Positions 2,470 to 56,717 of a DNA stretch of 64,000 bases are shown in pieces. The first letter of the stretch is position 1. Each line of letters begins with the position of its first letter. Position numbers and translations under genes: made by a program. The stretch covers positions 215,326,001-215,390,000 of the forward strand of contig NC_091985.1 in NCBI RefSeq assembly GCF_044704955.1. The letters run 5' to 3'. The notes below the pieces were generated by a model, which had not been told where the DNA came from, searched no databases, and saw nothing but the letters and a program-made list of their open reading frames with translations. Source of the DNA: Pristiophorus japonicus. Its lineage: Eukaryota.

Positions 2470-5400
2470 TAGAAACATAGAAAATAGGTGCAGGAGTAGG
2501 CCATTCGGCCCTTCGAACCTGCACCACCATTCAATAAGATCATAGCTGATCATTCACCTCAGTACCCCTTTCCTGCTTTCTCTCCATACCCCTTGATCTC
2601 TTTAGCCACATCTAAGTCCCTCTTGAATATATCTAACGAACTGGCCTCAACAACTCTGTGGTAGAGAATTCCACAGGTTCACAATTCTGAGTGAAGAAGT
2701 TTCTCCTATCTCGGTCCTAAATGGTTTACCCCTTATCCTTAGACTATGATCCTTGGTTCTGGACTTCCCCAACATCGGGAACATTCTTCCTGCATCTAAC
2801 CTGTCCAGTCCCGTCAGAATTTTATATGTTTCTATGAGATCCCCTCTCATTCTTCTAAACTCCAGTGAATACAGGCCCAATCGATCCAGTCTCTCCTCAT
2901 ATGTCAGTCCTGCCATCCGGGGAATCAGTCTGCAGAACCTTCGCTGCACTCCCTCAATAGCAAGAACATCCTTCCTCAGATTAGGAGACCAAAACTGAAC
3001 ACAATATTCCAGGTGAGACCTCACTCACCAAGGCTCTGTACAACTGCAGCAAGACCTCCCTGCTCCTATACTCAAATCACCTATGAAGGCCAACATGCCA
3101 TTTGCCTTCACCGTCTGCTGTACCTGCATGCCAACTTTCAATGACTAATGCACCTCCCCCTTTCCTAATCTGCCGCCATTCAGATCGTATTCTGCCTTCA
3201 TGTTTTTGCCACCAAAGTGGATAACCTCAAATTTATCCACATTATACTGCATCTGCTATGCATTTGCTCACTCACCTAACCTGTCCAAGTCACCCTGCAG
3301 CATCTTAGCATCCTCCTCACATCTCACACAGCCACCCAGCTTAGTGTCATCTGCAAACTTGGAGATACTCCACTCAATTACTTCATCTAAATCATTGATG
3401 CATTGAATAGCTGTAAATAGCTGGGGTCCCAGCACTGAGCCCTGCGACACCCCACTAATCACTGCCTGCCATTCTGAAAAGGACTTGTTTATCCCGACTC
3501 TCTACTTCCTGTCTGCCAACCAGTTCTCTATCCATGTCAATACATTATCCCCAATACCATGTGCTTTAATTTTGCACACCAATCTCTTGTGTGGGACCTT
3601 GTCAAAAGCCTTTTGAACGTCCAAATACACCACATCCACTGGTTCTCCCTTGTCCACTCTACTAGTTACATCCTCAAAAAATTCCAAAAGATTTGTCAAG
3701 CATGATTTCCCTTTCATAAATCCAACCTGTCACTGCTTTCCAAATGCTCTGCTATTTCATCCTTAATAATTGATTCCAACATTTTCCCCATCACTGAAGT
3801 CAGGCTAACTGGTCTATAATTAGTCCCTTTCTCTCACACTCCCTTTTTAAAAAGTGGTGTTACATTAGCTACCCTCCAGTACATAGGAACCGATCCAGAG
3901 TCGATAGAATGTTGAAAAATGATCACCAATGCATTCATTATTTCTAGGGCCACTTCCTTAAGTACTCTGAGATGCAGGCACTGGAGATTTATCAGCCTTC
4001 AATCCCATCAATTTCCCTAACACAATTTCCAGACTAATAAGGATTTCCTTCAGTTCCTACTTCTCACCAGACCCCCGGTCCTCTAGTATCTCCAGAAGAT
4101 TATTTGTGTCTTCCTTCGTGAAGACAGAACCAAAATATTTGTTCAATTGGTCTGCCATTTCTTTGTTCCCCATTATAAATTCACCTGATTCTGACTGCAA
4201 GGAACCTTCGTTTGTCTTCACTAATCGTTTTCTCTTCACATATCTATAGAAGCTTTTGCAGTCAGATTTTATGTTCCCAGCAAGCTTCCTCTCAAACTAT
4301 TTTACCCCTCCTAATTAGACCCTTTGTCCTCCTCTGCTGAATTATAAAATTCTCCCAGTCCTCAGGTTTGCTGCTTTTTCTGGCCAATTTATATGCCTCT
4401 TCCTTGGATTTAACACTATCCTTAATTTTCCTTGTTTGCCACGGTTGAGCCACCTTCCCCATTTTATTTTTACTCCAGACAGGGATGTACAATTGTTGAA
4501 GTTCATCCATGTGATCTTTAAATGTTTGCCATTGCCTATCCGCCATCAATCCCTTAAGTATCATTCGCCAGTCTATTCTAGCCAATTCACGTCTCATACC
4601 ATCAAAGTTAGAGAGTCGGAATAAACGGGTCCTTTTCAGAATGGCAGGCAGTGACTAGTGGAGTGCCGCAGGGCTCAGTGCTGGGACCCCAGCTCTTTAC
4701 AATATACATTAACGATTTAGATGAAGGAATTGAGTGTAATAGCTCAGAGTTTGCGGGTGACACTAAGCTGGGTGGCGGTGTGAGCTGTGAGGAGGACGGC
4801 AAGAGGCCGCAGGGTGACTTGGACAGGTTAGGTGAGTGGGCAAATGCATGGCAGATGCAGTATAATGTGGATAAATGTGACGTTATCCATTTTGGGGGCA
4901 AAAACACGAAGGCAGAATATTATCTGGATGGTGGCAGATTAGGAAAAGGGGAGTTGCAACGAGACCTGGGTGTCATGGTTCATCAGTCACTGAAAGTGGG
5001 CATGCAGGTACAGCAGGCGGTGAAGAAGGCAAATGGCATGTTGGCCTTCATAGCTAGGGGATTTGAGTATAGGAGCAGGGAGGTCTTACTGCAATTGTAC
5101 AGGGCCTTAGTGAGGCCTCACCTGGAATATTGTGTACAGTTTTGGTCTCCTAATCTGAGGAAGGATGTTCTTGCTGTTGAGGGAGTGCAGCGAAGGTTCA
5201 CCAGACTTATTCCAGGGATGGCTGGACTGTCATATGAGGAGAGACTGGATCAACTGGGCCTTTATTCACTGGAGTTTAGAAGGATGAGAGGGGATCTCAT
5301 AGAAACATATAAGATCCTGACGGGACTGGACAGGTTAGATGCGGGAAGAATGTTCCCGATGTTGGGGGCGTCCAGAACCAGGGGACATAGCCTTAGGATA

Positions 5401-14220: not shown

Positions 14221-14760
14221 CTTTCCTCCTTATGAGAATATGCTTGGTTTGTACCCGGTGTCAAATTTTGTTTAATAATGCTCCCGTGAAGCACGTTGGG
14301 ACGTTTAAGATACTGTATAAATACAAGTTGTTGTTGTCTGAACTGACAATACATTGCGCAGAAGTAAAATATAGTATTTTTAGTCCTAAATATTAAATAT
14401 TTTGTTCCACAGAAGCATGGGACGTGTATGTTTTTATTCATGAATTTAAAAAGTCTATATTAAAATCTGAGCCGGTGGGTTGTGAGCCCAAGAGCCTTGT
14501 GTCCAATAAGGACAATAAATGCCCCCAGCCTCCCCTGGCCCAGATGGTCGCCGGGGTGGCAGCTCCCGGGGGAGCTCCTCTGCTGAATAACTTTATCCCT
14601 TGCCGTCTGTTGCCATCCGACACCCTTTCTCCCCCAATCTCCCCGCTTTAAGCTCTCCCTGGCCCCAATAGGGGGCACATTTCTTACCGCTTAAGCACAA
14701 ATCCATGCTGCAAGGGCAGTTACCTGAGCACACTGCCCATCCCCCAAACATGCCTGTTCT

Positions 14761-15925
14761 TCACCTCCATCAGTGAGTGCGGGATCTCCACCTCCATCAG
14801 TGAGTGCGGGATCTCCACCTCCATCAGTGAGTGCGGGATCTCCACCTCCATCAGTGAGTGCAGGATCTCCACCTCCATCAGTGAGTGCAGGATCTCCACC
14901 TCCATCAGTGAGTGCGGGATCTCCACCTCCATCAGTGAGTGCGGGATCTCCACCTCCATCAGTGAGTGCGGGATCTCCACCTCCATCAGTGAGTGCGGGA
15001 TCTCCACCTCCATCAGTGAGTGCAGGATCTCCACCTCCATCAGTGAGTGCGGGATCTCCACCTCCATCAGTGAGTGCGGGATCTCCACCTCCATCAGTGA
15101 GTGCGGGATCTCCACCTCCATCAGTGAGTGCGGGATCTCCACCTCCATCAGTGAGTGCGGGATCTCCACCTCCATCAGTGAGTGCGGGATCTCCACCTCC
15201 ATCAGTGAGTGCGGGATCTCCACCTCCATCAGTGAGTGCAGGATCTCCACCTCCATCAGTGAGTGCAGGATCTCCACCTCCATCAGTGAGTGCGGGATCT
15301 CCACCTCCATCAGTGAGTGCGGGATCCCCACCTCCATCAGTGAGTGCGGGATCCCCACCTCCATCAGTGAGTGCAGGATCTCCACCTCCATCAGTGAGTG
15401 CAGGATCTCCACCTCCATCAGTGAGTGCGGGATCTCCACCTCCATCAGTGAGTGCGGGATCTCCACCTCCATCAGTGAGTGCGGGATCCCCACCTCCATC
15501 AGTGAGTGCGGGATCCCCACCTCCATCAGTGAGTGCGGGATCTCCACCTCCATCAGTGAGTGCGGGATCTCCACCTCCATCAGTGAGTGCAGGATCTCCA
15601 CCTCCATCAGTGAGTGCAGGATCTCCACCTCCATCAGTGAGTGCGGGATCTCCACCTCCATCAGTGAGTGCGGGATCTCCACCTCCATCAGTGAGTGCAG
15701 GATCTCCACCTCCATCAGTGAGTGCAGGATCCCCACCTCCATCAGTGAGTGCAGGATCCCCACCTCCATCAGTGAGTGCAGGATCCCCACCTCCATCAGT
15801 GAGTGCGGGATCACCACCTCCATCAGTGAGTGCAGGATCTCCACCTCCATCAGTGAGTGCGGGATCCCCACCTCCATCAGTGAGTGCGGGATCCCCACCT
15901 CCATCAGTGAGTGCAGGATCTCCAC
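14761..15925. repeat. 27-bp minisatellite CACCTCCATCAGTGAGTGCRGGATCYC, about 43 copies
   Basis: Directly visible near-perfect tandem array with two variable positions. Confidence 0.97.
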
Positions 15926-16760
15926 TCAAACCCATCTTTAACCCGCCGCACTTTCCCGCTGCCCAGCCCGTGCTCCCCCGCCAGTTGTGGCCGGCCCAGC
16001 GACTCCTCGCGGACACCATCAGCGTCCGGGGTGCTCCCGCCCAACTCACAGCGGACCACTGCACTGCTCCAGGCGGCCCCCGGGATCTCAGCGGCCGGCG
16101 GTGAGCCTTTGACCAACTGCCAAAGCTGCTTTGGGCCGAGCTCCCGCGCAAGGCCTTCCTCCGGCCGCATCCTGACCAACGGACGGCCCAACTCGCGCCC
16201 TGCGGCTCAGCCAATCAGCGGCGCAAGTCCCGCCCCTCGGGCTCCCCGATTGGCTGGAGGTCCCGCCGCCGGCTCGTCCTCCAGCCCCGACCTGCTCGCT
16301 CCCAATTGGACGAAAGCTCCTCCAGCCCCGCCCTACTCGCTTCCCCCATTGGTCGGAAGCTCCCGTCAATCAGGCTGTGGGAGCGGGTCACATTTCCCTT
16401 GAGCGCGCTCCGCCAAACTGACCAAGCACAGCGCGGGGCCCGGATGGACGGACTCAGGTTTGGATTTCCCTTTATTCGCTCCCTATCCCCCCTCCCTCCC
16501 CCCGCTCGATTCTCTACCCAATCCGAGCGGAGAAAACTCACTGCGCGTCACCGATCGCTGCTCTGTCACGGACACAAACGCCTTTCCCCGGAAGGCTCAG
16601 CGTCGAGTCCGTACCACAGCATCCAAGCAGCACCGAGTGGGGATGGGGCGGGTGGTGTTTTCTGGGCATGCGCGGTTATTACCGAGGGTGACCGAGAGGG
16701 GACGTTGTGGCGAACACGGTGCCGCGTGCGCATGCGCGGCTGCTGGTGAGACCTGTGACA
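15926..16760. promoter_or_regulatory. CpG-island promoter, possibly bidirectional
   Basis: Very GC/CpG-rich. Multiple CCAAT/ATTGG boxes (about 16211, 16249, 16303, 16348, 16519), CCGCCC GC boxes, and an NRF1-like GCGCATGCGC at about 16728. Confidence 0.7.
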
Positions 16761-42173: not shown

Positions 42174-43107
42174 AACTCCATGCTGTCCTGAGAGAACAAA
42201 CCAAAAACACAATGGCTCTTTTAAGAGCCACCCACAACCTCTCTGAAAGACCTAAAGCGCATCACCCTTTAGACTCAATATTCTGTAATTATTTCCTGAA
42301 CAAGTGTGTTTGGGAACCTTTGCAGTTCCAGCTGTGGAGTTAGTTTTGAATTCTCATAAGCAGCTTCACTGTCTGGTTCGACGTTAGGACTGCTGTTGAA
42401 TTTCCCGCCATTCAAGCTACAAACACGATTCCTTGTCGCTCGTTCCCATTTACAGCGCCTGCCGAGGAATTAAGAGCTTGTTTAGGAAATGAGGCTCAGA
42501 TTTCAGTCACCTCATTCTCTCGTAAGCCCTTTACAAATTTATTTTTCAATTCCTGTTACGGTCAATCTGTTTATTAACTCGGGACTCCCTGCAATGTAAA
42601 AACCCAGAATGGGAGTTCGTACAGAGACCAGAACGGGAGCAGTGTGAACACTCTATCCCTCTTCCCTTTTCACATAAGGGCTCCCAGTTCTGGACTCACT
42701 CCCGCCTGTGCGGAAGATCAATCCATGATTTGTGATTCCCAACTTTTACACAGTTTGAGCTGGAATGTGTCCTGTTACAGAATCAGTGGGGATTGATTGC
42801 CGTCCGTTACAGACAGATTGACAGTGAACGCGAATTTAATTTTGATTGTAACAGCCTGGAATTAGTAAGGGAAATATGGAATAAAATAAAAGGAAGTAAA
42901 ACCTGTTTGTAAACCTTTGGCTAATGGTGCATTTATTAACATAATCCGCACTTTAAAAAATTATTGGCGGTGTTTTTGAAATTAAAAATAGTTCGAGGTG
43001 TGACTGTTGAGGACAGGAATTTCCGCCGTCGTTTCATTGGTGGTCTCAGCAGACAATGGGTAAGGCGAGAGATTAACATTCAGCGGCAATTTCAGTAAAG
43101 AATCATC

Positions 43108-43412
<305 letters not shown>

Positions 43413-43686
43413 ATAACGTGACCCTTTCTCCCAAACACAACACAAAGGCTCTTCTCAGAGCCACCCACCTCTTCACAGAGAGAGCAGTGACCTGGGGAAC
43501 GGGGGCGAGATCGTTGATTTACATTTTGTTCTGTATAGATATGTTTTTTGCCAAGATCTGTATTGTGGTGTTCGGTGTTTTAAATCAGCATATAAACGAT
43601 GGACAGAATGTCCTTTTAGTCTTCAAATCATAGACATTTACGGGACATTCCAGATGAAGGTAATACTGAAAAATCTAATGTAGTTA

Positions 43687-44948
43687 GAACATAAGAACAT
43701 AAAAACATAAGAAATAGGAGCAAATGTAGGCCATACGGCCCCTCGAGCCTGCTCCGCCATTTAATACGATCATGGACTCTGGTCTACTTTCCTGCCCCAT
43801 ATTCCCTTATTAAGAAACTGTCTGTTTCTGTCTTAATTTTATTCAATGTCCCAGCTCTCTGAGGCAGCGAATTCCACAGATTCACAATCCTCAGAGAAGA
43901 AATTTCTCCTCATCTCAGTTTTAAATGGGCGACCTCTTATTCTAAGATTAAGCCCTCTAGTTCTAGTTTCCCCTAGCAGTGGAAACATCCTCTCTGCATC
44001 CACCTTGTTAAGCCCCCTCATAATCTTATATGTTTCGATAAGATCACCTCTCATTCTTCTGAATTCCAATGAGTAGAAGCCCAACCTACTCTACCTTTCC
44101 TCAAGTCAACCCCCTCATTCTGGAATCAACCTTGTGAAACTTCTCTGAACTGCCTCCAAAGCAAGTATATCCTTTTTGTAAATATAGAAACCAAAACTGC
44201 ATGAAGTATTCCAGGTGTGGCCTCACCAATACCCTGTACAACTGTAGCAAGACTTCCCTGCTTTTATACTCCATCCCCTTTGCAATAAAAGCCAGATTCC
44301 ATTGGCCTTCCTGATCACTTGCTGTACCTGCATACTAACCTTTTGTGTTTCATGCACAAGTACCCCCAGGTCCCGCTGCACTGCAGCACTTTGCAATCTT
44401 TCACCATTGAAATAATAACTTGCACTTGCACAAATCAAAGAGCATGACCTCACACTTTCCAATATTATACTCCATCTGCCAAATCCTTGCTCACTCACTT
44501 AGCCTGTCTATGTCCTTTTGCAGAATTTGTGTCCTCCTCACCCATTGCTTTTCCTCCTATCTTTGTATCGTCAGCAAACTTGGCTGCGTTACTCTCGGTC
44601 CCTTCTTCCAAGTCATTAATATAGATCGTAAATAGTTGGGGTCCTAGCACTGATTCCTGTGGCATCCCCTTGGTTACTGATTGCCAACCCGGGAATGAAC
44701 CATTTATCCCCACTCTCTGGTTTCTGTTTGTTAGCCAATCCTCTATCCATGCTAATATATTACCCCCAACCCCGTGAACTTTTATCTTGTGCAGTCAGTA
44801 ACCTTTTATGTGGCACCTTGTCAAATGCGTTCTGGAAGTCCAAATACACCACATCCACTACTTCCCCATTATCCACCCTGTGCGTGACATCCTCAAAGAA
44901 TTCCAGCAAATTTGTCAAACATGACTTCCCCTTCATAAATCCATACTG
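43687..44948 (-). mobile_element. 5'-truncated CR1 inserted in the H4-H2B spacer
   Basis: RT fragments 43839-44713 and a TTATGTTC-type tail. The flanks match the uninterrupted spacer at about 49017-49035. Confidence 0.9.
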
Positions 44949-45329
44949 TTACATCCATGTTACAGCAGTGACAGATAAGAAAGGTGTTGAATTAAACGAT
45001 GGGAGGAAGGCAGCATCAGGGCAGAAGGACAGTGAGGGTCCCTTGCCCTCATAGAAGGACTCCCAAGTCCTGATCAGAAGTGACCCTCAGGAAATCTCGG
45101 TTACAAACCGGTCAATGTCTCGAACATGTAGAAATGTAGATCGACAAACACAGCTGTTCAGATTATTGAATGTATATATAGAAAAAAACGTGAATGAACC
45201 TTCCTCATAAGTCCGGCCGTCATTAACCATTTTTGCCTGAGAGCAGAATAGAAACAAAAACGGAATATAAATCGGGAGGGGATGTCATTGATGACTTAAT
45301 TTAAGAATTTGAGATTGTGGCAAACAATA

Positions 45330-45480
45330 AATCTGATTGGATGTTTAAAGATACCAATCAGAGAGATACAGAACAATGGAAATTGACAACGCAGCCAATG
45401 AACCAATCACAGTCATTGCCTTCACCCATCCCTCATTAGCATAAGGTTGTGGGCGGAGTGTGGGGCTACCTACATAATGC
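45330..45480 (+). promoter_or_regulatory. H2B-type promoter upstream of the interrupted H2B
   Basis: CCAAT boxes, octamer-like CTCATTAGCATA, GGGCGG and a weakened TATA (TACATAA). Paralogous to 49285-49435. Confidence 0.75.
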
Positions 45481-45547
45481 GAGCCCGGAGCAAAATTTCT
45501 TTCATATCTACCCGACTGAACAAGACGATGCCTGAGGAAAAGAAACC

Positions 45548-45900
45548 CGCTTCTCGGCCTTTTGGCTAAGATCATGCGTAACTGACCTGACAGGGGAGTA
45601 ACCACCATAACCCCAAGGTGGTTCTCCCTGGATCAGGAAGGTATATGCTTGCTTTTTTGGAAATAGGAGGTGGGTGGGGTGGTTTGACCCATCCACCTCC
45701 ACGGAGGTGTGTGGGGGACCTGACCTATACACCTCCATGGCACGAACCTGGTATTGCAGTACTTCCAGGAACGGTGCAGTGGCTCTAGGCCTTTTGGCTA
45801 AGAGCATTGGCGCAGAGTGATCCTTGAATGGGCCCAAGGTGACCTCTGGCGTTTGTGATTTGACAAAGAATTGGAACGATTGGCTACGAATTTTAAAAAA
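45548..45900 (+). mobile_element. U2/U1 snRNA-derived chimeric retroposon, unit 1
   Basis: U2 5' end CGCTTCTCGGCCTTTTGGCTAAGATCA (45548-45574). U1-like ACTGACCTGACAGGGGAG...AAGGTGGTTCTCCC (45581-45628). U2 3' stem-loop IV ACCTGGTATTGCAGTACTTCCAGGAACGGTGCA (45746-45778). A-tail. Confidence 0.85.
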
Positions 45901-45909
45901 AAGAAACCA

Positions 45910-46221
45910 GCTTCTCGGTTTTTTGGCCAAGATCATGCGTAACTGACCTGACAGGGGAATAACCATGACCAGAAAGTGGTTCTCCCTGGATCAGGAAGGT
46001 GGTTCTCCTATGCTTTTTGGAAATAGGAGGTGGGTGTGGGGCTTGACCCATCCACCTCCATGGCACGAACCTGATATTGCAGTACTTCCAGGAACGGTGC
46101 TTGGGCTCGAGGCCTTTTGGCTAAGAGCATTGGCGCAGAGTGATCCTTGATGGGTGCAAGGTGACCTCTGGCGTTTATGATCTCACAAAGAATTGGAAAG
46201 ATTGGCAACGAATAATAAAAA
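45910..46221 (+). mobile_element. U2/U1 snRNA-derived chimeric retroposon, unit 2
   Basis: Same order of modules as unit 1 but diverged: U1-like 45942-45986, U2 SL-IV 46069-46100, A-rich tail. Confidence 0.85.
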
Positions 46222-47551
46222 AAGAAACCAGCTTCGAAAAAGGGTGCCAAAAAAGTCATCAAAAAAACATCACCAAAGGGCGGCAAGAAGCGCCGAAATT
46301 CGAGGAAGGAGAGTTATGCTATCTACATCTACAAAGTGATGAAGCAGGTTCACCCCGACACCGGCATCTCCTCCAAGGCCATGGGCATCATGAACTCGTT
46401 TGTGAATAATATTTTCGAGCGCATTGCGGGTGAGGCTTCCCGCCTGGCCCATTACAACAAGCGTCGCGCCATCAGTTCCCGGGAGATCCAGACCGCCGTG
46501 CGCCTGCTGCTGCCCGGGGAGCTGACCAAGCACGCCGTGTCGGAAGGGTCAAAGGCGGTGACCAAGTACACCAGCTCCAAGTAAAACTCCACGCTGTCCT
46601 GACAGAACAAACCCCAAACACAACGGCTCTTTTAAGAGCCACCCACAACATAATTGAAAGAGCTGCACAAACATCACCCTTTAGACTGAATTTACTGTAA
46701 TTATTTCCTGAACAAGTGTGTGTGAGAACCTTTGTAGTTCCAGCTGTAGATTTAGTTTTGAATTCTCATAAGTAGCTTCACTGACCGGCTTGACCTTGGC
46801 GTCACTGGAATTTCCTGTAGTGAGTAAACTACAAACACGGTCCCTGGTCGCTTTCCCTTTGTTCTCAGACCCGTTCATTCACAGCGCCTGCCGACGAATT
46901 TATTTTGGGGGGCGGGGAAACTCCGATTTCAGTCACATTCTCAATCAAGTCCTTTTCACGAGTTTTTTTTATTCCGTTGCGCTCAGTCCGTTTATTAACC
47001 CGAGACTCCCCGCAGTGTAACAACCCAGAATGGGAGTTCTTAGAGATTGGAACAGGGGCAGTTTGAACACCCTGTCCCTCTTCTCTTTTTACAGAAGGAC
47101 TCTCAGTTCTGGTCTCACTCCCACAGCAGCTCCTGTGAAAACAAGTTCACTTTTACGAAGATGGAGCTGGAATGTGTCCCGTTACAGAATCAGTGGGGAC
47201 TGAGTCCCGCCCGTTACAGACAGTTTGAAGCTGAAGCCGAATTTAATCCTAATTGTTACAGGCTGGAATTTGCAAGGGAAATATGGAATAAGACAAAAGG
47301 AAACAAAAAGTGTTTTGAAGTATTTGGCTAATGGTGAAGTTACTAACTCAATCCGCAATTTTCACAATTATTGGCGGGATTTTTGAATTTAAAAAATCGT
47401 TAGGTTCTGGCTGTTGGGAAACCAGTAATTTCCGCCCTCCTTTCATTGGTGGACTAGACAGGCTGTGATTGGTCATCGGAAACGGCCAATGAAATCCACG
47501 ACAGAGTGACCAATCACAAGTTCGCTCCCTGCATCCCTCCAGAAGGGATAA

Positions 47552-47970
<419 letters not shown>

Positions 47971-48402
47971 AGCGGACAAGATTTAAACTAATAACCCAAA
48001 GGCTCTTTTCAGAGCCACTCACAGTATCTGTGAAACGGCTGCTTACTGTATTAATGGAGACCTTGAGTTCAGGTACCGATAAATTGGTCTATTTCAGACC
48101 TGTATGCGGGAGTTTTCAGTTCCTGGTATTTCCATTATGGTTTTCTGCTCACACAAACTGTTCTAGTTAGCAGCTAATAATTAAACTACAGTTGTCAGAG
48201 ACTCAAAACTTGTATAAATACCGCAACCGGTTCCCTAAATATTTAATCTTATCAATGAAAGCTGTATGAAGAAAGTCGGCGGTTATTAAAAGGGCCTAGT
48301 TTAATTCTGGTCTGGTTTGAGAGTTTGAATGCTGGTTCTGTTCCCGGGAGCTCCAGTCGTTCCGGGCTGTGTATTTTTCTCCTAAGCCGGTCAGTTTAGG
48401 CC

Positions 48403-48492
48403 TACACTGAGCAGCCAAGCGCAAGACGGTCACTGCCATGGATGTGGTGTGCACTCTGAAACGGCAGGGCCGCACTTTCTATGGATTCAACG
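48403..48492 (+). pseudogene. Histone H4 3' fragment
   Basis: [25 protein letters not shown]; degraded stem-loop at about 48522-48537. Confidence 0.88.
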
Positions 48493-48664
48493 GGACTCTC
48501 TTCCCCCAAGCACAAAGCAAAGGCTCTTCTAAGTCCCACCCACCGCCTCACGGGGGGAGGGAGGGAGATATAGTTCATTTACATTTTGTTCGGTATCGAT
48601 AGATATTTTAAATCAGCATATGCACGATGGACGGAATATCCTTTTAGTTTCAGAATTATAGATA

Positions 48665-48960
48665 TTTATCATCGAAGCTTACAACACGGAATGAGGCCAC
48701 TTCGGCCCATCGTGTCCGTGCCGGCCAACAAAAGGCTATCCAGCCGAATCCCACTTTCCAGCTCTAGGTCCGTAACCCTGCAGGTTACGGCACTTCAAGT
48801 GCACATCCAAGTAGTTTTAAATGTGGTGAGGGTTTCTGCCTCTACCACCCTTTCAGGCAGTGAGTTCCAGAGCGCAGCCACCCTCTGCGTGAAGATATTT
48901 CCCCTCTAAATCTTCTACCAATTACTTTAAATTTATGCCTCCTGTGCTAAGGGAAATAGG
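48665..48960 (-). mobile_element. Short CR1 3' fragment
   Basis: Similar to the CR1 3' end at 12590-12900. Confidence 0.7.
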
Positions 48961-49284
48961 CCCTTTACGGCACAGAAGGTACGGCATATTCCAGGTGAAG
49001 GTAACACTGAAACAACTAATGTAGTTACAGCAGTGAAAGATAAGAAAGGTGTTGAATTAAACGGTGGGAGGAAGGCAGCATCAGGGAGGAAGGACATTGA
49101 GGGTCTTTTGACCTCATAGACTTCCAAGTCCTGACCAGAAGTGGCCCTCAGGCAATCTCGGTTACAAACCGGTCAATGTCTGTCAAACATGTAGAAATCT
49201 AGATCGATAAAGAACAGAGTATAAGTCGGGAGGGGATGTAACTGATGACCTAATTGAAGAATTTGAGATTGTGGCGAGCAGTAA

Positions 49285-49435
49285 ATCTGATTGGTCTCTT
49301 TAAACATCCAATCAGAGAATTACAGAACAATAGAAATTGACAACGCAGTGAGTGAACCAATCACAATTGTTGCCTTCACCCATCCCTCATTAGCATAGGG
49401 CTGTGGGCGGAGTGTGGGGCTGCCTATATAATGCG
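49285..49435 (+). promoter_or_regulatory. H2B promoter
   Basis: CCAAT boxes, octamer-like CTCATTAGCATA, GGGCGG and TATATAA. Confidence 0.8.
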
Positions 49436-49483
49436 AGCTCCGAGCTAAGTTTACGTCATGTCTGGGTTGGATTGAACAAGACG

Positions 49484-49861
49484 ATGCCTGAAGAGAAGAA
49501 ATCAGTTACTGCCAAGAAAGGCGCCAAGAAAGTGATCAAGAAAACACCACCAAAGGGCGGTAAGAAGCGCAGGAAGTCGAGGAAGGAGAGTTACTCCATC
49601 TACATCTACAAAGTGATGAAGCAGGTTCACCCCGACACCGGCATCTCCTCCAAGGCCATGGGCATCATGAACTCTTTTGTGAACGATATTTTCGAGCGCA
49701 TCGCAGGTGAGGCTTCCCGCCTGGCCCATTACAACAAGCGCCGCACCATCAGCTCCCGGGAGATCCAGACCGCCGTGCGTCTGCTGCTACCCGGGGAGCT
49801 GGCCAAGCACGCCGTATCGGAAGGGACAAAGGCGGTGACCAAGTACACTAGCTCCAAGTAA
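49484..49861 (+). CDS. H2B: Histone H2B (125 aa), replication-dependent
   Basis: [16 protein letters not shown]...[26 protein letters not shown]...TKYTSSK; intronless. Confidence 0.97.
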
Positions 49862-49901
49862 AACTCCACGTTGTCCTCACACAACAATCCCTAAACACAA
49901 C

Positions 49902-49917
49902 GGCTCTTTTAAGAGCC
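49902..49917 (+). terminator. Histone 3' stem-loop (H2B)
   Basis: GGCTCTTTTAAGAGCC-ACCCA followed by a purine-rich GAAAGAG downstream element. Confidence 0.95.
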
Positions 49918-50810
49918 ACCCACAACGTCTCTGAAAGAGCTGCACAAACACATCACCCTTTAAACTCAATTTACTGTATTTATTTCCTGAGCAAGTGTGT
50001 TTGACAGCATTTAAAATTCCAGCTGTAGATTTAGATTTGAATTATCAGATAAGCGGTTTTACTGTCCGGTTCAACCTTAGCTTCTCTGATGAATTTTCCT
50101 CCCAGTAAACTGCACACACTGTCCCTGGTCGCTTGCCAATGAATTATGATCTTGTTTTAGGAGGTGAAACTCAGACTTTAGTCACCTCATTCTCTCTCAA
50201 ACCCTTTACAATATAAAAAAAATTCTAGTTCGGGTCAACCCGCTTATTAATCCGAGATTCCGAGTGCAACAGCCCAGACTGGGAGTTCTTACAGAGACCA
50301 GAACAGGGAGTTTGAACCCTCTGTCCCTCTTTTCACAGAAGAACTCCCAGTTCTGGTCTCACTGCCGCCTGTGCGGATGATCGATCCATGATCTGTGATT
50401 CCCAAATTGTACAAAGATTGTGCTGGAATGTGTCCCGTTACAGAACGTTTGAAACTGAACGCGAATTTAATCCTGATTGTAACATCCTGGAATTTGGAAG
50501 GCAATAAAGAATACGGCAAAAGGAAATAAAAAGTGTTTGGAAATCTTTGGCTAATGTTGAATTTATTAACATAATCCGCATTGTAAAAATTATTGGCGGG
50601 GTTTTTGAAATTGAAGATTCGTTGGCAGTCGAACAGTAATTTTCGCCCTGTTTACATTGGCGGGCTAAACAGACGGTGATTGGTCAGCGGAAAAGACCAA
50701 TGAAATCCACTTCAGAGCGACCAATCACAAGTTCGCTCCCTGCATCCCTCCAGAATGTATAAGAAGGGCAGATGTGGGAGGAGTTTCTCATTCTTTGTCT
50801 GAACTTGTGA

Positions 50811-51206
<396 letters not shown>

Positions 51207-51236
51207 AGCGGACAAGATTTAATCTAATAACCCAAA

Positions 51237-51252
51237 GGCTCTTTTCAGAGCC
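51237..51252 (+). terminator. Histone 3' stem-loop (H2A)
   Basis: GGCTCTTTTCAGAGCC-ACCCA. Confidence 0.95.
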
Positions 51253-51344
51253 ACCCACAGTATCTGTGAAGGGGATGCTTACTGTCTTAATGGAGTCAGA
51301 GCCCTTTAATTCATGTACCGATCGATGGGCCTGTTTTAGACCTG

Positions 51345-51612
51345 GAAACATAGAAAATAGGTGCAGGAGTAGGCCATTCGGCCCTTCGAGCCTGCACCAC
51401 CATTCAATAAGATCATGGCTGATTATTCCCTCAGTACCCCTTTCCTGCTTTCTCTCCATATCCCTTTAGCCATAAGGGCCACATCTAACTCCCTCTTGAA
51501 TATATGTAACGAACTGGCATCAACAACTCTGCGGTAGGGAATTCCACAGGTTAACAACTCTGAGTGAATAAGTTTCTCCTCATCTCAGTCCTAAATGGCT
51601 TTCCCCTTATCC
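51345..51612 (-). mobile_element. Short CR1 3' end
   Basis: CR1 tail; absent at the paralogous site at about 48100. Confidence 0.88.
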
Positions 51613-52256
51613 GTACGCGGGAGTTTTCAGTTCCCGGTCTCTGCATTACGGTTCTCTGCTCACACATACACTTCCCGTTAACAGCGAATAATTGAACTAC
51701 AGTTGTCACTCAACAATTGTATAAATACTGCCACCGGTTCTTTAAATATTCTTTAATCTGTCTGAAAACGAGAGAGTCGGCAATGATGAATTAATGTAGT
51801 AATAAAAGGGCCTAGTTTAATTCTGGTCTGGTTTGAGATAGTTTGAATGCTGATTTTGTTCTCGGGAGCTCTGGCCGTTCCCGGGCTCTGTATTTCTCTG
51901 CTAAGCCGGTCAGTTTAGACCGCACTGGAGCAGCGAGCGATGCACACATACAGGACCCGAGTCCATTGCAGTGCTTCCCAGATCTACCTGCCCCCATTCT
52001 CCGGCAACACCGAATGGGGAAATCTGTGCTCTGCCCCGGGGAACTCGAGGTCAGAGCGACGCAAAGCCGATGTCAGTTTCTGAAAATATTAAGACTCACC
52101 AGTTAATCGTCAATAATTCCCATGTGAACCGAGTTGGTATATGAAGACACGATCAGTAATCAGTCTCACACCCTCTGCCCGTCCCTACAATGGGTTAATG
52201 AACAACACGAAGCTCTGGTTACAGTAGATCGCAGCTCTTTCCTTTGCTGATTTGGT

Positions 52257-52272
52257 GGCTCTGAAAAGAGCC
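52257..52272 (-). terminator. Histone 3' stem-loop (H3)
   Basis: GGCTCTTTTCAGAGCC on the - strand. Confidence 0.93.
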
Positions 52273-52317
52273 GTTGTTGCACTTGGTGCTGAAGCTTGGA
52301 GCCGGGGCAGGGGGAGT

Positions 52318-52737
<420 letters not shown>

Positions 52738-53691
52738 TCAACACAATCTGGGACACACGGATTGTTAATGCGGGGACTCCTCTTTGCTTCCATTTAAAGT
52801 GTGTGAGGGTCCGCATGGAGCTGTGATTGGCTGCAACCCGACCGCCAATCAAGTTTGAACCAAGCACCGAGTGAAAATGAAGGGCGAGGAATACTGGGCC
52901 CTAATTGGCTGAACTGAAACTGACATTTGGTCAATTTCAAAAAGCCCGCCAATTTCAGAATATCAACCAACAGAGATTAAATAAAATCTAATTTCCCGCC
53001 AGCAATTTAAGAATCCCGCTCTTTATAACGGCGATTGTGCCCCATTATAAGTCACCAATCCCATTCTGTCACATTCCGGTTTGAATTATGTTCCATTCCC
53101 TGATCCGTCTGTACCGGGCGGGAATAAATCCGCGGTCACTGCTTCCTGTAAACATAAAGTCCCGCATCGATCCCGCCAGTGCCGTCCCACTTAACCGATT
53201 CTCACACAGAAACCTCACATGACAGGAATTATCTGTGAGGGGAGACTGTAATGTGTAAAGAGGACTGTGTATCCTGCCCGGTAATTGTGACTGTCAGCCG
53301 GAGTTTCTGATCTCTCATATTTACAATAGTTGTAAAATATTTAATAATTCCCATATTCCTAGAGACTACACTCCAAAAGTACTTCATTGGTCTTGTTCAT
53401 TGGATGTGGTCCTTGCGGCTGAGGGGGGGGCGGGGGTTGGGAGTGTGGAGGGGGCGTGGGGAGGTGATCAGCTGTGATCTTGTTGAATGGCGGTGCAGGC
53501 TCGAAGGGCCGAATGGCCTACTCCTGCACCTATTTTCTATTTTTCTGTGTCTTGAGACGTTCGGTGGTCGTGAAAGGCGCAATATAAATCCAAACCTTTC
53601 TTTCCATTAATTAAACAGCCGAAACCATTTCCCAACCAAACTGTCCGCGCTCCGATCCCCAGGTCGCTGCTCTCTCTGTGTGCCGGTGGGT

Positions 53692-53707
53692 GGCTCTTAG
53701 AAGAGCC
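53692..53707 (-). terminator. Histone 3' stem-loop (H4)
   Basis: GGCTCTTCTAAGAGCC-ACCCA on the - strand. Confidence 0.93.
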
Positions 53708-53742
53708 TTTGTGTTGTGTTTGGGGGAAAAGGGTCGAGTTAT

Positions 53743-54066
<324 letters not shown>

Positions 54067-54804
54067 TCACTTAAACTGCCGCTGAATGAGAAGTGAACTG
54101 CTGCCGGCTCCTTTTTATAGAGCCGGAGCCGACCTGACTGAGAAAGCGCAGAGTGAGAGAGGCGGGAAGGGGAGGAGACATAGTCAAGATTGACAGACAG
54201 AGCAGAGAGCGGCCTCTGATCTTCCAGCTTTCTGCAGCCGCTAATTTCAAACCGTTTTCCGACAATAGAACCGAAACAGACTCGGAATTTATATTCAAAG
54301 CTTCCAGGAACCTGAAGCTTTTAAATAAAGTCCCGCTACAATTAACAATCGCGAATATTCCCGCCTATATACAGCCCCTTCCCTGTCAATCTCAGACCTT
54401 GTTCCATCTCCCCACACTTCCTCTCACAGACGGGTTCAACAGTTTACAAACACCTTATTCCAGCTGATTTGGAGAATGTGGTGTTTGGGGTTTGAGTTGT
54501 GAGGCGGGGTATCTCCGCCAGTGTCACCGTCTCACAGACTCTCCCCCTGAATCTGTGAAATGACAATGACCAGGAACTGAGACTGGAGCTGAACACATCC
54601 CCAGTTACAGTGAGGCCCGGGCCGGACATCCCATTCTCTGTGTGTTTTATTGCAGACACTGGGGGAGGGGTGGGTGCAGCCAATGTCAGCGAGTCACCAG
54701 GGATCCTGGCTTCATGTTCAATGATTTCTGTCTGAAATCTGAGCCCGGCCCCGGGACAGGGATCATTTGATTCGGGGATCAACTCTTTTCTGAGAGGCGT
54801 GGGT

Positions 54805-54820
54805 GGCTCTGAGAAGAGCC
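54805..54820 (-). terminator. Histone 3' stem-loop (H1)
   Basis: GGCTCTTCTCAGAGCC-ACCCA on the - strand. Confidence 0.93.
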
Positions 54821-54855
54821 TTTGGGTTCAGATGTTTACAAGTTGCACTTTTTAT

Positions 54856-55554
54856 TTACTTTTTGAGCGCTGGTTTCTTGGGTTTTGTTGATTTGGCCTT
54901 GGCCCTCGGTTTTCCCACCTTTTTGGCCGCCTTCACCTTTGCGCCCGAGGCCTTCTTGGGGCTCTTGGGCTTCGCCGCTGCCGCCTTCTTCCCAGCCGCC
55001 GCTTTCGCTGACTTTTTTACTGTTAGCGCCTTCTTGGTGCTCGTTTTCTTGGCCGGAGATTTCTTGGCTGCTGGTTTCTTGGCCGGAGATTTCTTGGCTG
55101 CTGGTTTCTTGGCCGGAGATTTCTTGGCTGCTGGTTTCTTGGCTGGAGATTTCTTGGCTGCTGGTTTCTTGGCTGGAGAGTTCTTGGCTGCTGGTTTCTT
55201 CACCTTCCTTCCCACTTTCCCCTGGTTTTCCTTCTTAGCGACTTTGAAGGAGCCCGAGGCGCCCGTGCCCTTGGTCTGCAGCAGGAAGCCATTTGTCACA
55301 TTCCTCTTGATACTGAACCTGATCTGGGACCCGCGCTTCTCCACATCCACGCCTTTGGCCGCCAGAGCCTTCTTTATCGCGGCCAGAGACATCCCCTTGC
55401 GATCGCTGCCATCGGTCACAACCTTGAGGATCTGTTCGCCCAACGTGGGGCCGGCTGGCTTGGAGCGGGGAGCTGCCTTCTTCTTCTTGCGGGGGGCCTT
55501 GGCTTGAGCGGCGGCGGCAGAAGGAGCTGTTTCGGCGGCTGAAGTGTCAGTCAT
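54856..55554 (-). CDS. H1: Linker histone H1 (232 aa)
   Basis: [11 protein letters not shown]..., a globular domain ([13 protein letters not shown]...[13 protein letters not shown]) and a K/A/P-rich tail; AC box AAACACA and GC box upstream. Confidence 0.95.
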
Positions 55555-56717
55555 GTCGGCGACTCTGTGGAAAATCTCTCTGACAGTCAGAGCTCGGTCA
55601 GAAATGAAACGACGGGAGGCGGCGGCACAGAGCAACTTAAAGGCAGCGAGCGGACGGGGCGAGACATCCTGCTGTCAGCTCCCCGCCCCTCCAGCCTCTC
55701 TGTGTTTCTCTCTCCTCATTAACTGTCCGATTCCAATTCAACCCGGGCCCTCCAGATTTCCAGACTGGCCTCTTTCTGTCCCGAAGACCGGGATGTTTGT
55801 TATCGAGAAAGCTTCCTCCGAATTAATGGCAGCATTGCTGCACTGATCGCGCTCACTCACCCGATCGCGGACATTTTCTCTGTTTTTCGATTGAAATTTG
55901 AAATCACATCAAACTTGACGTTTAATTCCCACTTTAGACCTGAGCAGGGCAGCAGGGCGATCCTGTGACAGGAAAATCTTTGAATTTTACACAAGCGGGA
56001 CTCTGGAATCCGGCGATGACACAAACAAAGTGACATTCGTCTCACCGGCCCGCCCCTTTAACACACTCTCGCTCACACAATGTTCACATCTGCACATTCA
56101 CAGCACAAACTGTCCCAGATTTACAGCTCCCAGCACAGGGTTACCTCTCCGCTCGGCCTGTGCTGCCGATTCTCGGGGTTAGTTGTAGTTTCCTAGCTCA
56201 GTAAGTGTTAAACACTCTGAGGCCGGCGTTCCTCAGAGTGTCTGTTCCCCAGATTCAGGGGCAGGAGCCAATCACAGCAGAGGCTGGCTTAACCCATATA
56301 TGCTGTTAAGTTATTACATTGTTCGCACGCAGAAATATGTTTGATTAACGTGAAAATAGAAATTATGAGTTCACCGCCCCTCCACCCTCTCTTTGTCTCT
56401 CTCTCTCTCTCTCCTCCGAAAATGAGGGACATATAACAGTAACTGGTATCCTATCCATCCCATACTCACCACCCAGAGATGGCTATCAGAGGGAGCGACA
56501 GAGAGACAGACACAGAATCAGTCTTAAACTCCCTAACTGTGTCTCAATATTACTCTCAATAATAGTATCACACATTCATGTATAGCACCACCGAAAGAGA
56601 GAGAAAGAGACAGACACATTATCAGTCTTACACTTGGTATCAGTGTTTCCATATTACGCTCAGTAACAGTGCCACACCGTCATGTATAGCACCAGAGAGA
56701 GAAACAGAAACAGTATC

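Follow-up and report, generated by a model that had tools for sequence, protein, structure and literature searches.

The two repeat units that interrupt a histone H2B gene in the window (the whole 64,000-nucleotide stretch analysed, positions 215326001-215390000 of contig C9 in the 5.9-Gb Pristiophorus japonicus genome) are best read as copies of an active SINE with a U2/U1 snRNA-derived head, inserted at the same H2B codon (codon 4). The two insertions were likely successive, and the enzyme that made them likely belongs to a Tx1 LINE of the Keno type that no longer aims strictly at U2 genes, so that the start region of H2B ranks among its strongest secondary targets. We put the probability of this reading at about three in four.

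The sequence AAGAAACC(A/C)GCTTC is present three times, at 45540, 45901 and 46222 (spacings of 361 and 321 bp). Re-reading of the window letters thus confirmed the triple repeat and the two units described in the initial annotation, along with the A-rich tails at both unit ends. Its further statements also held: the units are diverged from each other (79.6% identity), a repeat-family scan of the window found different internal duplications in each, and the flanking H2B is only lightly diverged (95.8% identity to an uninterrupted paralogue). The description of three site repeats needs one amendment: two copies are full, but at the first (45540) only 10 bp (45538-45547) are duplicated, short of the full 14. 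The SINE 5' end, which starts at U2 nt 3, comes directly after them, and this is why the first repeat reads C instead of A. The duplication of unit 2 is 16 bp long (45899-45914 and 46220-46235), with its final five bases overlapping the U2 head. The features of the interrupted gene and its neighbourhood are as follows:

45435..45442, + strand: octamer-like element of the H2B promoter, one mismatch to what we take to be the Oct-1 octamer consensus
45528..45537, + strand: beginning of the H2B reading frame (ATG and codons for M-P-E), 5' of the inferred nick, by comparison with uninterrupted paralogues
45538..45547, + strand: left target-site duplication (TSD) of unit 1, 10 bp, at the main H2B hot-spot position
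45548..45898, + strand: SINE unit 1, young subfamily, from Rfam, alignment to the genome's own U1/U2 genes and the tree
45899..45914, + strand: middle duplication, 16 bp, both the right TSD of unit 1 and the left TSD of unit 2
45910..46219, + strand: SINE unit 2, older subfamily, from the same three sources as unit 1
46220..46235, + strand: right TSD, 16 bp, H2B codons K-K-P-A-S
46220..46584, + strand: remaining H2B coding sequence, open to the stop codon and separated from its ATG
46620..46665, + strand: histone 3' UTR stem-loop of the interrupted H2B, Rfam-type match
49484..49861, + strand: second H2B type (K-K-S-V-T-A), uninterrupted, which served as the control class

These genes belong to a histone unit at 43000-55700 of the window (in the order H4, H2B type 1, H2A, H4, H2B type 2, H2A, H3, H4, H1), which recurs across C9:201-228 Mb and whose H1 has a repeated C-terminal motif. 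Elsewhere the window holds a 21-bp tandem repeat (14650-15940), a C2H2 zinc-finger exon (1-642) and several CR1-type LINE remnants.

Both units carry an snRNA-derived 5' head, as seen in alignments to the U1 and U2 genes of the same genome. They score 53.7 bits (unit 1) and 56.4 bits (unit 2) against Rfam U2, where the gathering threshold is 46, so the structure is far beyond chance. Unit 1 consists of U2 nt 3-35 (45548-45580), U1 nt 3-57 (45581-45637) and the U2 3' half with a duplicated hairpin (to 45779), followed by a second copy of U2 stem-loop I (45784-45806), a tail of about 90 nt and an A-tail. Unit 2 is built from U2 nt 4-35, U1 nt 3-57, U2 nt 97-184, a second stem-loop I copy, a tail and an A-rich tail. 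Internal runs of 4-7 T occur in both. The family to which they belong has the makeup of a SINE (310-350 bp, non-coding, with poly(A) and TSDs of 7-23 bp at 94 sites), though not of a classical Pol III SINE with a tRNA, 7SL or 5S head and an internal promoter, because its head is U2/U1. The exact tail motif has 4,924 matches genome-wide (reversed control 0), which sets the copy number at 4,924 or more. A tree of 126 near-full-length copies, from which truncated copies were left out, resolves distinct subfamilies and places 16 identical dispersed relatives with unit 1, as expected of a family with source copies and not of independent retrocopies. An older, simpler subfamily (L028:2534-2800; L053, L060, L061-L080), in which a near-full-length U2 that lacks 11 nt is followed by a second stem-loop I and a short tail, looks like an ancestor of the window SINE and is itself targeted at its U2 +37 site. 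Truncation of the 5' end at nt 105-125, near an Sm-like T run, affects about half of the SINE copies (L165-L260).

The initial annotation had proposed an element specific for H2B, with unrelated flanks of other copies counting against it. For the family this specificity does not hold, as 25 of the best 30 loci fetched for each unit are non-H2B sites (the other 5 are duplicates of the window H2B locus), and about 37 filled H2B loci (23 found by the exact pattern, 12 further ones and L100/L103) compare with the 4,924 tail matches, less than 1%. Exclusive targeting of H2B is thereby ruled out. The repeated use of one H2B position that the annotation had also suggested is, in turn, well supported, and the site is a real hot spot. 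By the exact pattern, 23 type-1 H2B sites are filled and 62 empty. The H2B 5'-end pattern gave 108 matches, 100 of them listed, and among 40 further H2B loci fetched, 12 have a SINE at the site (4 of these are partial duplicates), 1 has SINEs in the 5' UTR and 27 are empty. Junctions and subfamilies distinguish at least 15 independent insertions, 14 by SINEs and one by a LINE: unit 2, unit 1, a third unit in L133, a 10-copy group, L116, L121, L127, L128, L130, L132, L100/103, L308, L309/312/327, L323/325/342/344 and a 5'-truncated LINE in L119/131. The SINEs of L127 and L130 are identical and were separated by their junctions and H2B variants. On the SINE tree the H2B label changes nine times, each change forced by supported branches. 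By chance about 0.0003 events would be expected at the site with the copy number doubled, an enrichment of about 4x10^4 when 12 events are counted. All H2B events are in sense orientation and inside about 25 bp, across four H2B sequence variants, even when the single type-2 insertion (L351) and a 5' UTR pair (L347) are added. The microhomology of GCTTC with the U2 5' end, put forward earlier as part of the targeting, is neither a requirement nor the driver, since it is used at a minority of H2B junctions and the insertions at L308 and L351 are in H2B variants without GCTTC.

Two of these insertion groups have features of their own. At L100/L103 the SINE is extended at its 5' end by 53 nt that were copied from sequence flanking a SINE/LINE locus on C3 (L306), through 5' transduction or a template jump; given this match, an snRNA promoter was ruled out as the nature of the extension. 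Members of the 10-copy group (L112, L114, L115, L117, L118, L120, L123-L126) now range from about 300 to 350 bp via gain or loss of an internal repeated hairpin.

Control regions point the same way. A scan of 35 histone cluster stretches of 10 kb (350 kb), which covered 55 H2A, 45 H4, 32 H3, 26 H1 and 56 H2B matches, found three elements, all three at the H2B site, and none in the H2A, H4, H3 or H1 matches. Full-pattern matches to type-2 H2B were empty in 74 of 74 cases; among 11 extra 5'-end matches, one was filled about 5 nt further on, nine were empty and one was non-histone. Use therefore differs between type 1 and type 2 (15/110 vs 1/84, Fisher p = 0.0012), although these per-copy rates are rough because duplication links the paralogues. 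Of about 839 matches to the U2 site, 99 are filled (reversed control 0), and per copy the type-1 H2B site is used about as much as this. Its use exceeds that of the sites in a transposase gene of Harbinger-like type (4 of the first 100 matches filled, out of 2,040) and in a pol gene of Gypsy type (none of the first 100 filled, out of 6,599). The loci with these other recurrent sites are in Harbinger-like (L227, L241, L250, L256), Gypsy-type pol (L011, L046, L222, L234, L258, L260) and CR1 (L019, L020, L159, L168, L255) sequences, names that we presume from their translations and from known families.

What makes this H2B position so attractive is captured only in part by its sequence. The target motif pooled from 94 sites is approximately purine-G-pyrimidine followed, across the nick, by A-(A/T), with an information content of 3-4 bits that is partly an artefact of anchoring on A. 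By motif score the type-1 H2B site is in the top 1.3% of positions and the type-2 site is lower, which fits the direction of the difference in their use. Nine positions in the same H2B coding sequence score better, and none of them was seen used. The likeness of the H2B site to the U2 site is at chance level (in windows of 20-40 bp, 48-58% of random positions score as well), and the idea that the H2B site is a U2-site look-alike was ruled out. Pairing of the SINE or LINE RNA with the H2B site was likewise rejected, as no word in common with the site exceeds 6-7 nt in the SINE or 9-10 nt in the 5.6-kb LINE, and DNA hairpins have no peak at the nick across the 94 target sites. Beyond a moderate motif match, the heat of the H2B site is accounted for neither by the motif nor by U2 likeness.

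An alternative that we consider unlikely, but worth keeping in view, is that the U2-targeting retrotransposon and its SINE find their targets partly by position, about 35-37 nt 3' of the start of certain Pol II genes with non-polyadenylated RNAs (U2 and H2B), perhaps via paused polymerase or Oct-1-type factors and then the nearest tolerable motif. It is motivated by the distances: the H2B hot spot lies about 69 nt 3' of the TATA box (measured in a paralogue), or about +35 from the inferred start, close to the +37 of the U2 site. The confinement of the H2B events to about 25 bp, in one orientation and in four variants (L351 and L347 included), the disuse of better motifs deeper in the gene and the octamer-like word in the H2B promoter would all fit. 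This start, however, is itself placed from the TATA position, and none of the H2A, H4, H3 and H1 matches scanned holds an element, not even in H2A and H4, where tolerable motifs do occur 59-80 nt 3' of TATA. The type-2 H2B promoter is near-identical, yet it accounts for one event versus 15. Moreover, old dispersed SINE copies, which have no U2 promoter, are hit at their U2 site as well, and 600 bp of U2 spacer hold no octamer within one mismatch. If position did guide these elements, H2B would be a second home target for a SINE living on the U2 promoter, and a protein-coding gene family colonised at one site.

Under the reading that we prefer, a single loosened enzyme serves these sites, and a candidate for it was found outside the window. 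A LINE 3' end, present inside a SINE array (L028) and at the H2B site, has 461 exact matches genome-wide. Its ORF1 has ZCCHC3-type RNA-binding domains and a zinc knuckle, and its ORF2 has AP endonuclease (APE), RT and zf-RVT domains (Pfam), a set that we take to be the Tx1-type architecture. Full-length copies with an open ORF2 of 1,135 aa occupy nt 37/38 of real U2 genes in tandem arrays and are 92-95% identical over their length to a dispersed full-length copy. None of 30 sampled LINE 3' ends is directly followed by a U2 gene; genome-wide, at least 10 copies with short tails are at the U2 site. SINE and LINE share targets at U2, at H2B, at a CR1 position (LINE in L159, SINEs in L020/L168) and inside SINE arrays, where the same LINE family occurs with an identical TSD. 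A SINE lies directly upstream of the LINE in 3 of 6 long regions fetched and in L111. The poly(A)-tailed, Tx1-like LINE that the initial annotation had placed outside the window is thus matched by an element that uses the same H2B site (L119/L131). The suggested link through the 3' UTR was not recovered, because the terminal ~90 nt of the SINE have no match in that of the LINE (82 of 300 shuffles score as well), and the partnership rests instead on shared sites. On these grounds the partner of the SINE is likely this Tx1-type, Keno-type LINE.

Several smaller observations concern this LINE. Its 5' UTR (about 100-130 nt after U2 +1; L262, minus strand) and the 3' part of the SINE (45780-45815 of the window) have a U2 stem-loop-I-like hairpin in common, a likeness that 6 of 300 shuffles equal; from sequence, this hairpin is a candidate for the element that is recognised. 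A perfect octamer word stands just 3' of the LINE head, and SINEs with TSDs are inserted in that head at the U2-like site (L363, L364). Among the protein hits compared, the closest is P0059, a named Heterodontus protein, with short stretches 65-81% identical to ORF2, and the Takifugu protein BAD04856.1 is 39% identical to the LINE protein.

The division of labour could be different, with a dedicated H2B-specific Tx1 family carrying the SINE to H2B and other Tx1 families serving U2, Gypsy, Harbinger and CR1, a milder version of the H2B specificity proposed in the initial annotation. We regard this as improbable. The weak pooled motif with sharp hot spots, as observed, is what several specific enzymes acting side by side would produce, and in the accessible part of PMC4494074 the crocodilian SINEUs are proposed to use several Tx1-Mar families. 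Against it, the sole LINE found at H2B (L119/L131, 5'-truncated, one event in two copies) is 95% identical to the U2-resident dispersed family, no other long element occurs among the filled H2B loci examined, and the same LINE uses several other hot spots.

It is less probable still that the pile-up at H2B mostly reflects tolerance and duplication, that is, that type-1 H2B genes are dispensable, so that insertions in them survive and are then multiplied by segmental duplication. Both ingredients exist: several type-1 paralogues are frameshifted or early-stopped (L102, L104-L106), and in the tree the window pair is present in 5 duplicated loci and another H2B event in 10 copies. They do not account for at least 15 distinct junctions or subfamilies at a single position, where chance predicts about 0.0003 events, when no insertion was seen in the rest of the gene. 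The tree and the junctions thus largely refute this explanation. A local tandem duplication of the two units, suggested by their adjacency and common flanking repeats, is ruled out for practical purposes, because the units are only about 80% identical to each other, as compared to 99% and 93-96% to dispersed copies, and fall in different supported clades.

The units are therefore independent insertions of different subfamilies, as the initial annotation had concluded. With 40 candidates scored for each, the 99% relatives belong to unit 1 and are dispersed on many chromosomes, and those at 93-96% are the best dispersed relatives of unit 2. Tandem copies separated by TSDs, noted earlier for the window, are the rule in the family. 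Along C1, two to four units are present in 13 of 87 consecutive SINE clusters. Some TSDs extend into the head of the unit downstream (L028, L045, L046, L052), and a third upstream unit is found in just one of the five duplicated window-type loci (L003/L133); both show that arrays grow to the 5' side, which fits recognition mainly 5' of the nick. Sites had been re-used more often where the 3'-most copy is full-length (10/41 vs 3/45, p=0.03, by hand count with age uncontrolled).

The likely origin of the RNA lies in the U2 genes themselves. In 17 of 287 U2 array units the order is spacer, shared U2 head, SINE body, poly(A) and then U2 from nt 38, so that the SINE sits directly behind the U2 upstream spacer; only one subfamily is found there. 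The window's own subfamilies have 3 matches, none of them in U2 arrays. In the columns aligned for the tree, two of the SINEs inserted in H2B do not differ from a U2-array copy, the commonest 5' start of the heads is U2 +1 (29/103), and dispersed LINE copies have the U2 1-37 head without the array spacer (L364). Judged from this arrangement, a SINE behind the spacer would be transcribed from the U2 promoter, and the U2-array subfamily likely is, from inside real U2 genes. The H2B promoter was rejected as a source of SINE RNA: no SINE with an H2B leader was found outside the histone clusters among the 100 listed of 108 matches, and the match on C11 is an empty H2B. The tandem U2 arrays have a unit of about 770 bp (C19:69.62-69.73 Mb; C1003, C1832, C1868, C4309), and at the end of the C19 array nearly every U2 unit holds a LINE or a SINE.

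Taken together, the mechanism we propose is as follows. The external U2 promoter would drive transcription of source copies in U2 arrays, since the U2 5' end itself forms the head of both SINE and LINE. The target would be nicked by the LINE ORF2 protein, with priming on the poly(A) tail, leaving the duplications of 7-23 bp. After an insertion, the left duplication would still carry the upstream recognition sequence of the site, so that later copies would come to lie 5' of earlier ones and arrays would grow leftwards, as in the window. Site strength likely varies enormously through features beyond the short motif, with the type-1 H2B site in the top class.

Among known systems, the LINE works like Keno with relaxed specificity, a likeness of architecture and insertion site. 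Keno, as described in the available parts of PMC6136364 and PMC4640811, is a U2-specific member of the Tx1 clade that inserts 37 nt into U2, with an APE-type endonuclease, an RT and full-length copies in U2 arrays. The present LINE has the same Tx1-type architecture with an AP endonuclease and inserts at the same 37 nt, with the 3' flank reported for Keno in what is available of PMC6136364. Unlike Keno, it is not strictly U2-specific, as none of the 30 sampled 3' ends is followed by a U2 gene and most copies are off-target (461 3'-end matches vs at least 10 at the U2 site), with insertions also in H2B, CR1 and SINE arrays. It resembles Tx1-Mar, a Keno-related crocodilian family, in its relaxed or shifted targets and in likely serving snRNA-headed SINEs, and some Tx1-Mar members have U1/U2 heads themselves, but Tx1-Mar targets Mariner-N4 or LTR elements, and the accessible part of PMC4494074 reports neither U2 occupancy nor a histone target for it. 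According to the portion of PMC4640811 consulted, Utopia has the same U2 insertion site and frequently weak specificity, but it carries a restriction-like endonuclease, whereas the present LINE has an AP-type one. Dependence on a host promoter by co-transcription, which we infer for the SINE, recalls R2 in 28S rDNA (as cited in the accessible part of PMC4494074), although R2 belongs to a different clade, has a different target and is strictly site-specific.

The strong secondary target in H2B stands apart from these systems. The H2B variants, with few-base differences and a more than tenfold difference in use, offer natural substrates for studying how an endonuclease loses or shifts its aim. 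To our knowledge, site-specific Tx1 elements have been described from RNA genes, microsatellites and other transposons. Within the literature covered, with Repbase and most subscription papers outside it, we found neither a histone coding sequence as a recurrent non-LTR target nor an snRNA-headed SINE in cartilaginous fish. The available text of PMC11727581 treats histone retrocopies and not histone targets, and that of PMC5381603 mentions SINEU for crocodilians only.

The closest parallel for the SINE itself is SINEU-1/-2/-3, the U1/U2-headed SINEs that Kojima 2015 (PMC4494074, in the part accessible to us) describes from crocodilians only, with their transcription left open. By that account the present family is SINEU-like in its U1/U2 heads with recurrent 5' additions and partial duplications, its poly(A) tail, TSDs, frequent 5' truncation and tandem insertions sandwiching a TSD, the lack of 3' similarity to the partner LINE (reported for SINEU-1), and a Tx1-type partner inferred from shared targets. 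It differs in its host, Pristiophorus japonicus, whose CR1 load and closest protein fragments likewise point to a cartilaginous fish as the likely source, whereas the same text found no SINEU outside crocodilians; the likeness is one of design, in described features only. Its partner still occupies U2 genes, whereas Tx1-Mar, in that text, prefers a Mariner transposon, and its preferred sites are U2 nt 37, H2B codon 4 and earlier copies. What we see here is a SINEU-like family whose partner is of the Keno type but relaxed, whose source copies likely lie in U2 genes, and for which H2B is a strong secondary target. SINEs with snRNA heads, so far crocodilian only in the accessible text of PMC4494074, now include a large, recently active family in another vertebrate lineage, whose likely partner LINE is still intact, and its copies behind the U2 upstream spacer are a concrete candidate answer to the question of transcription that this text leaves open for SINEU.
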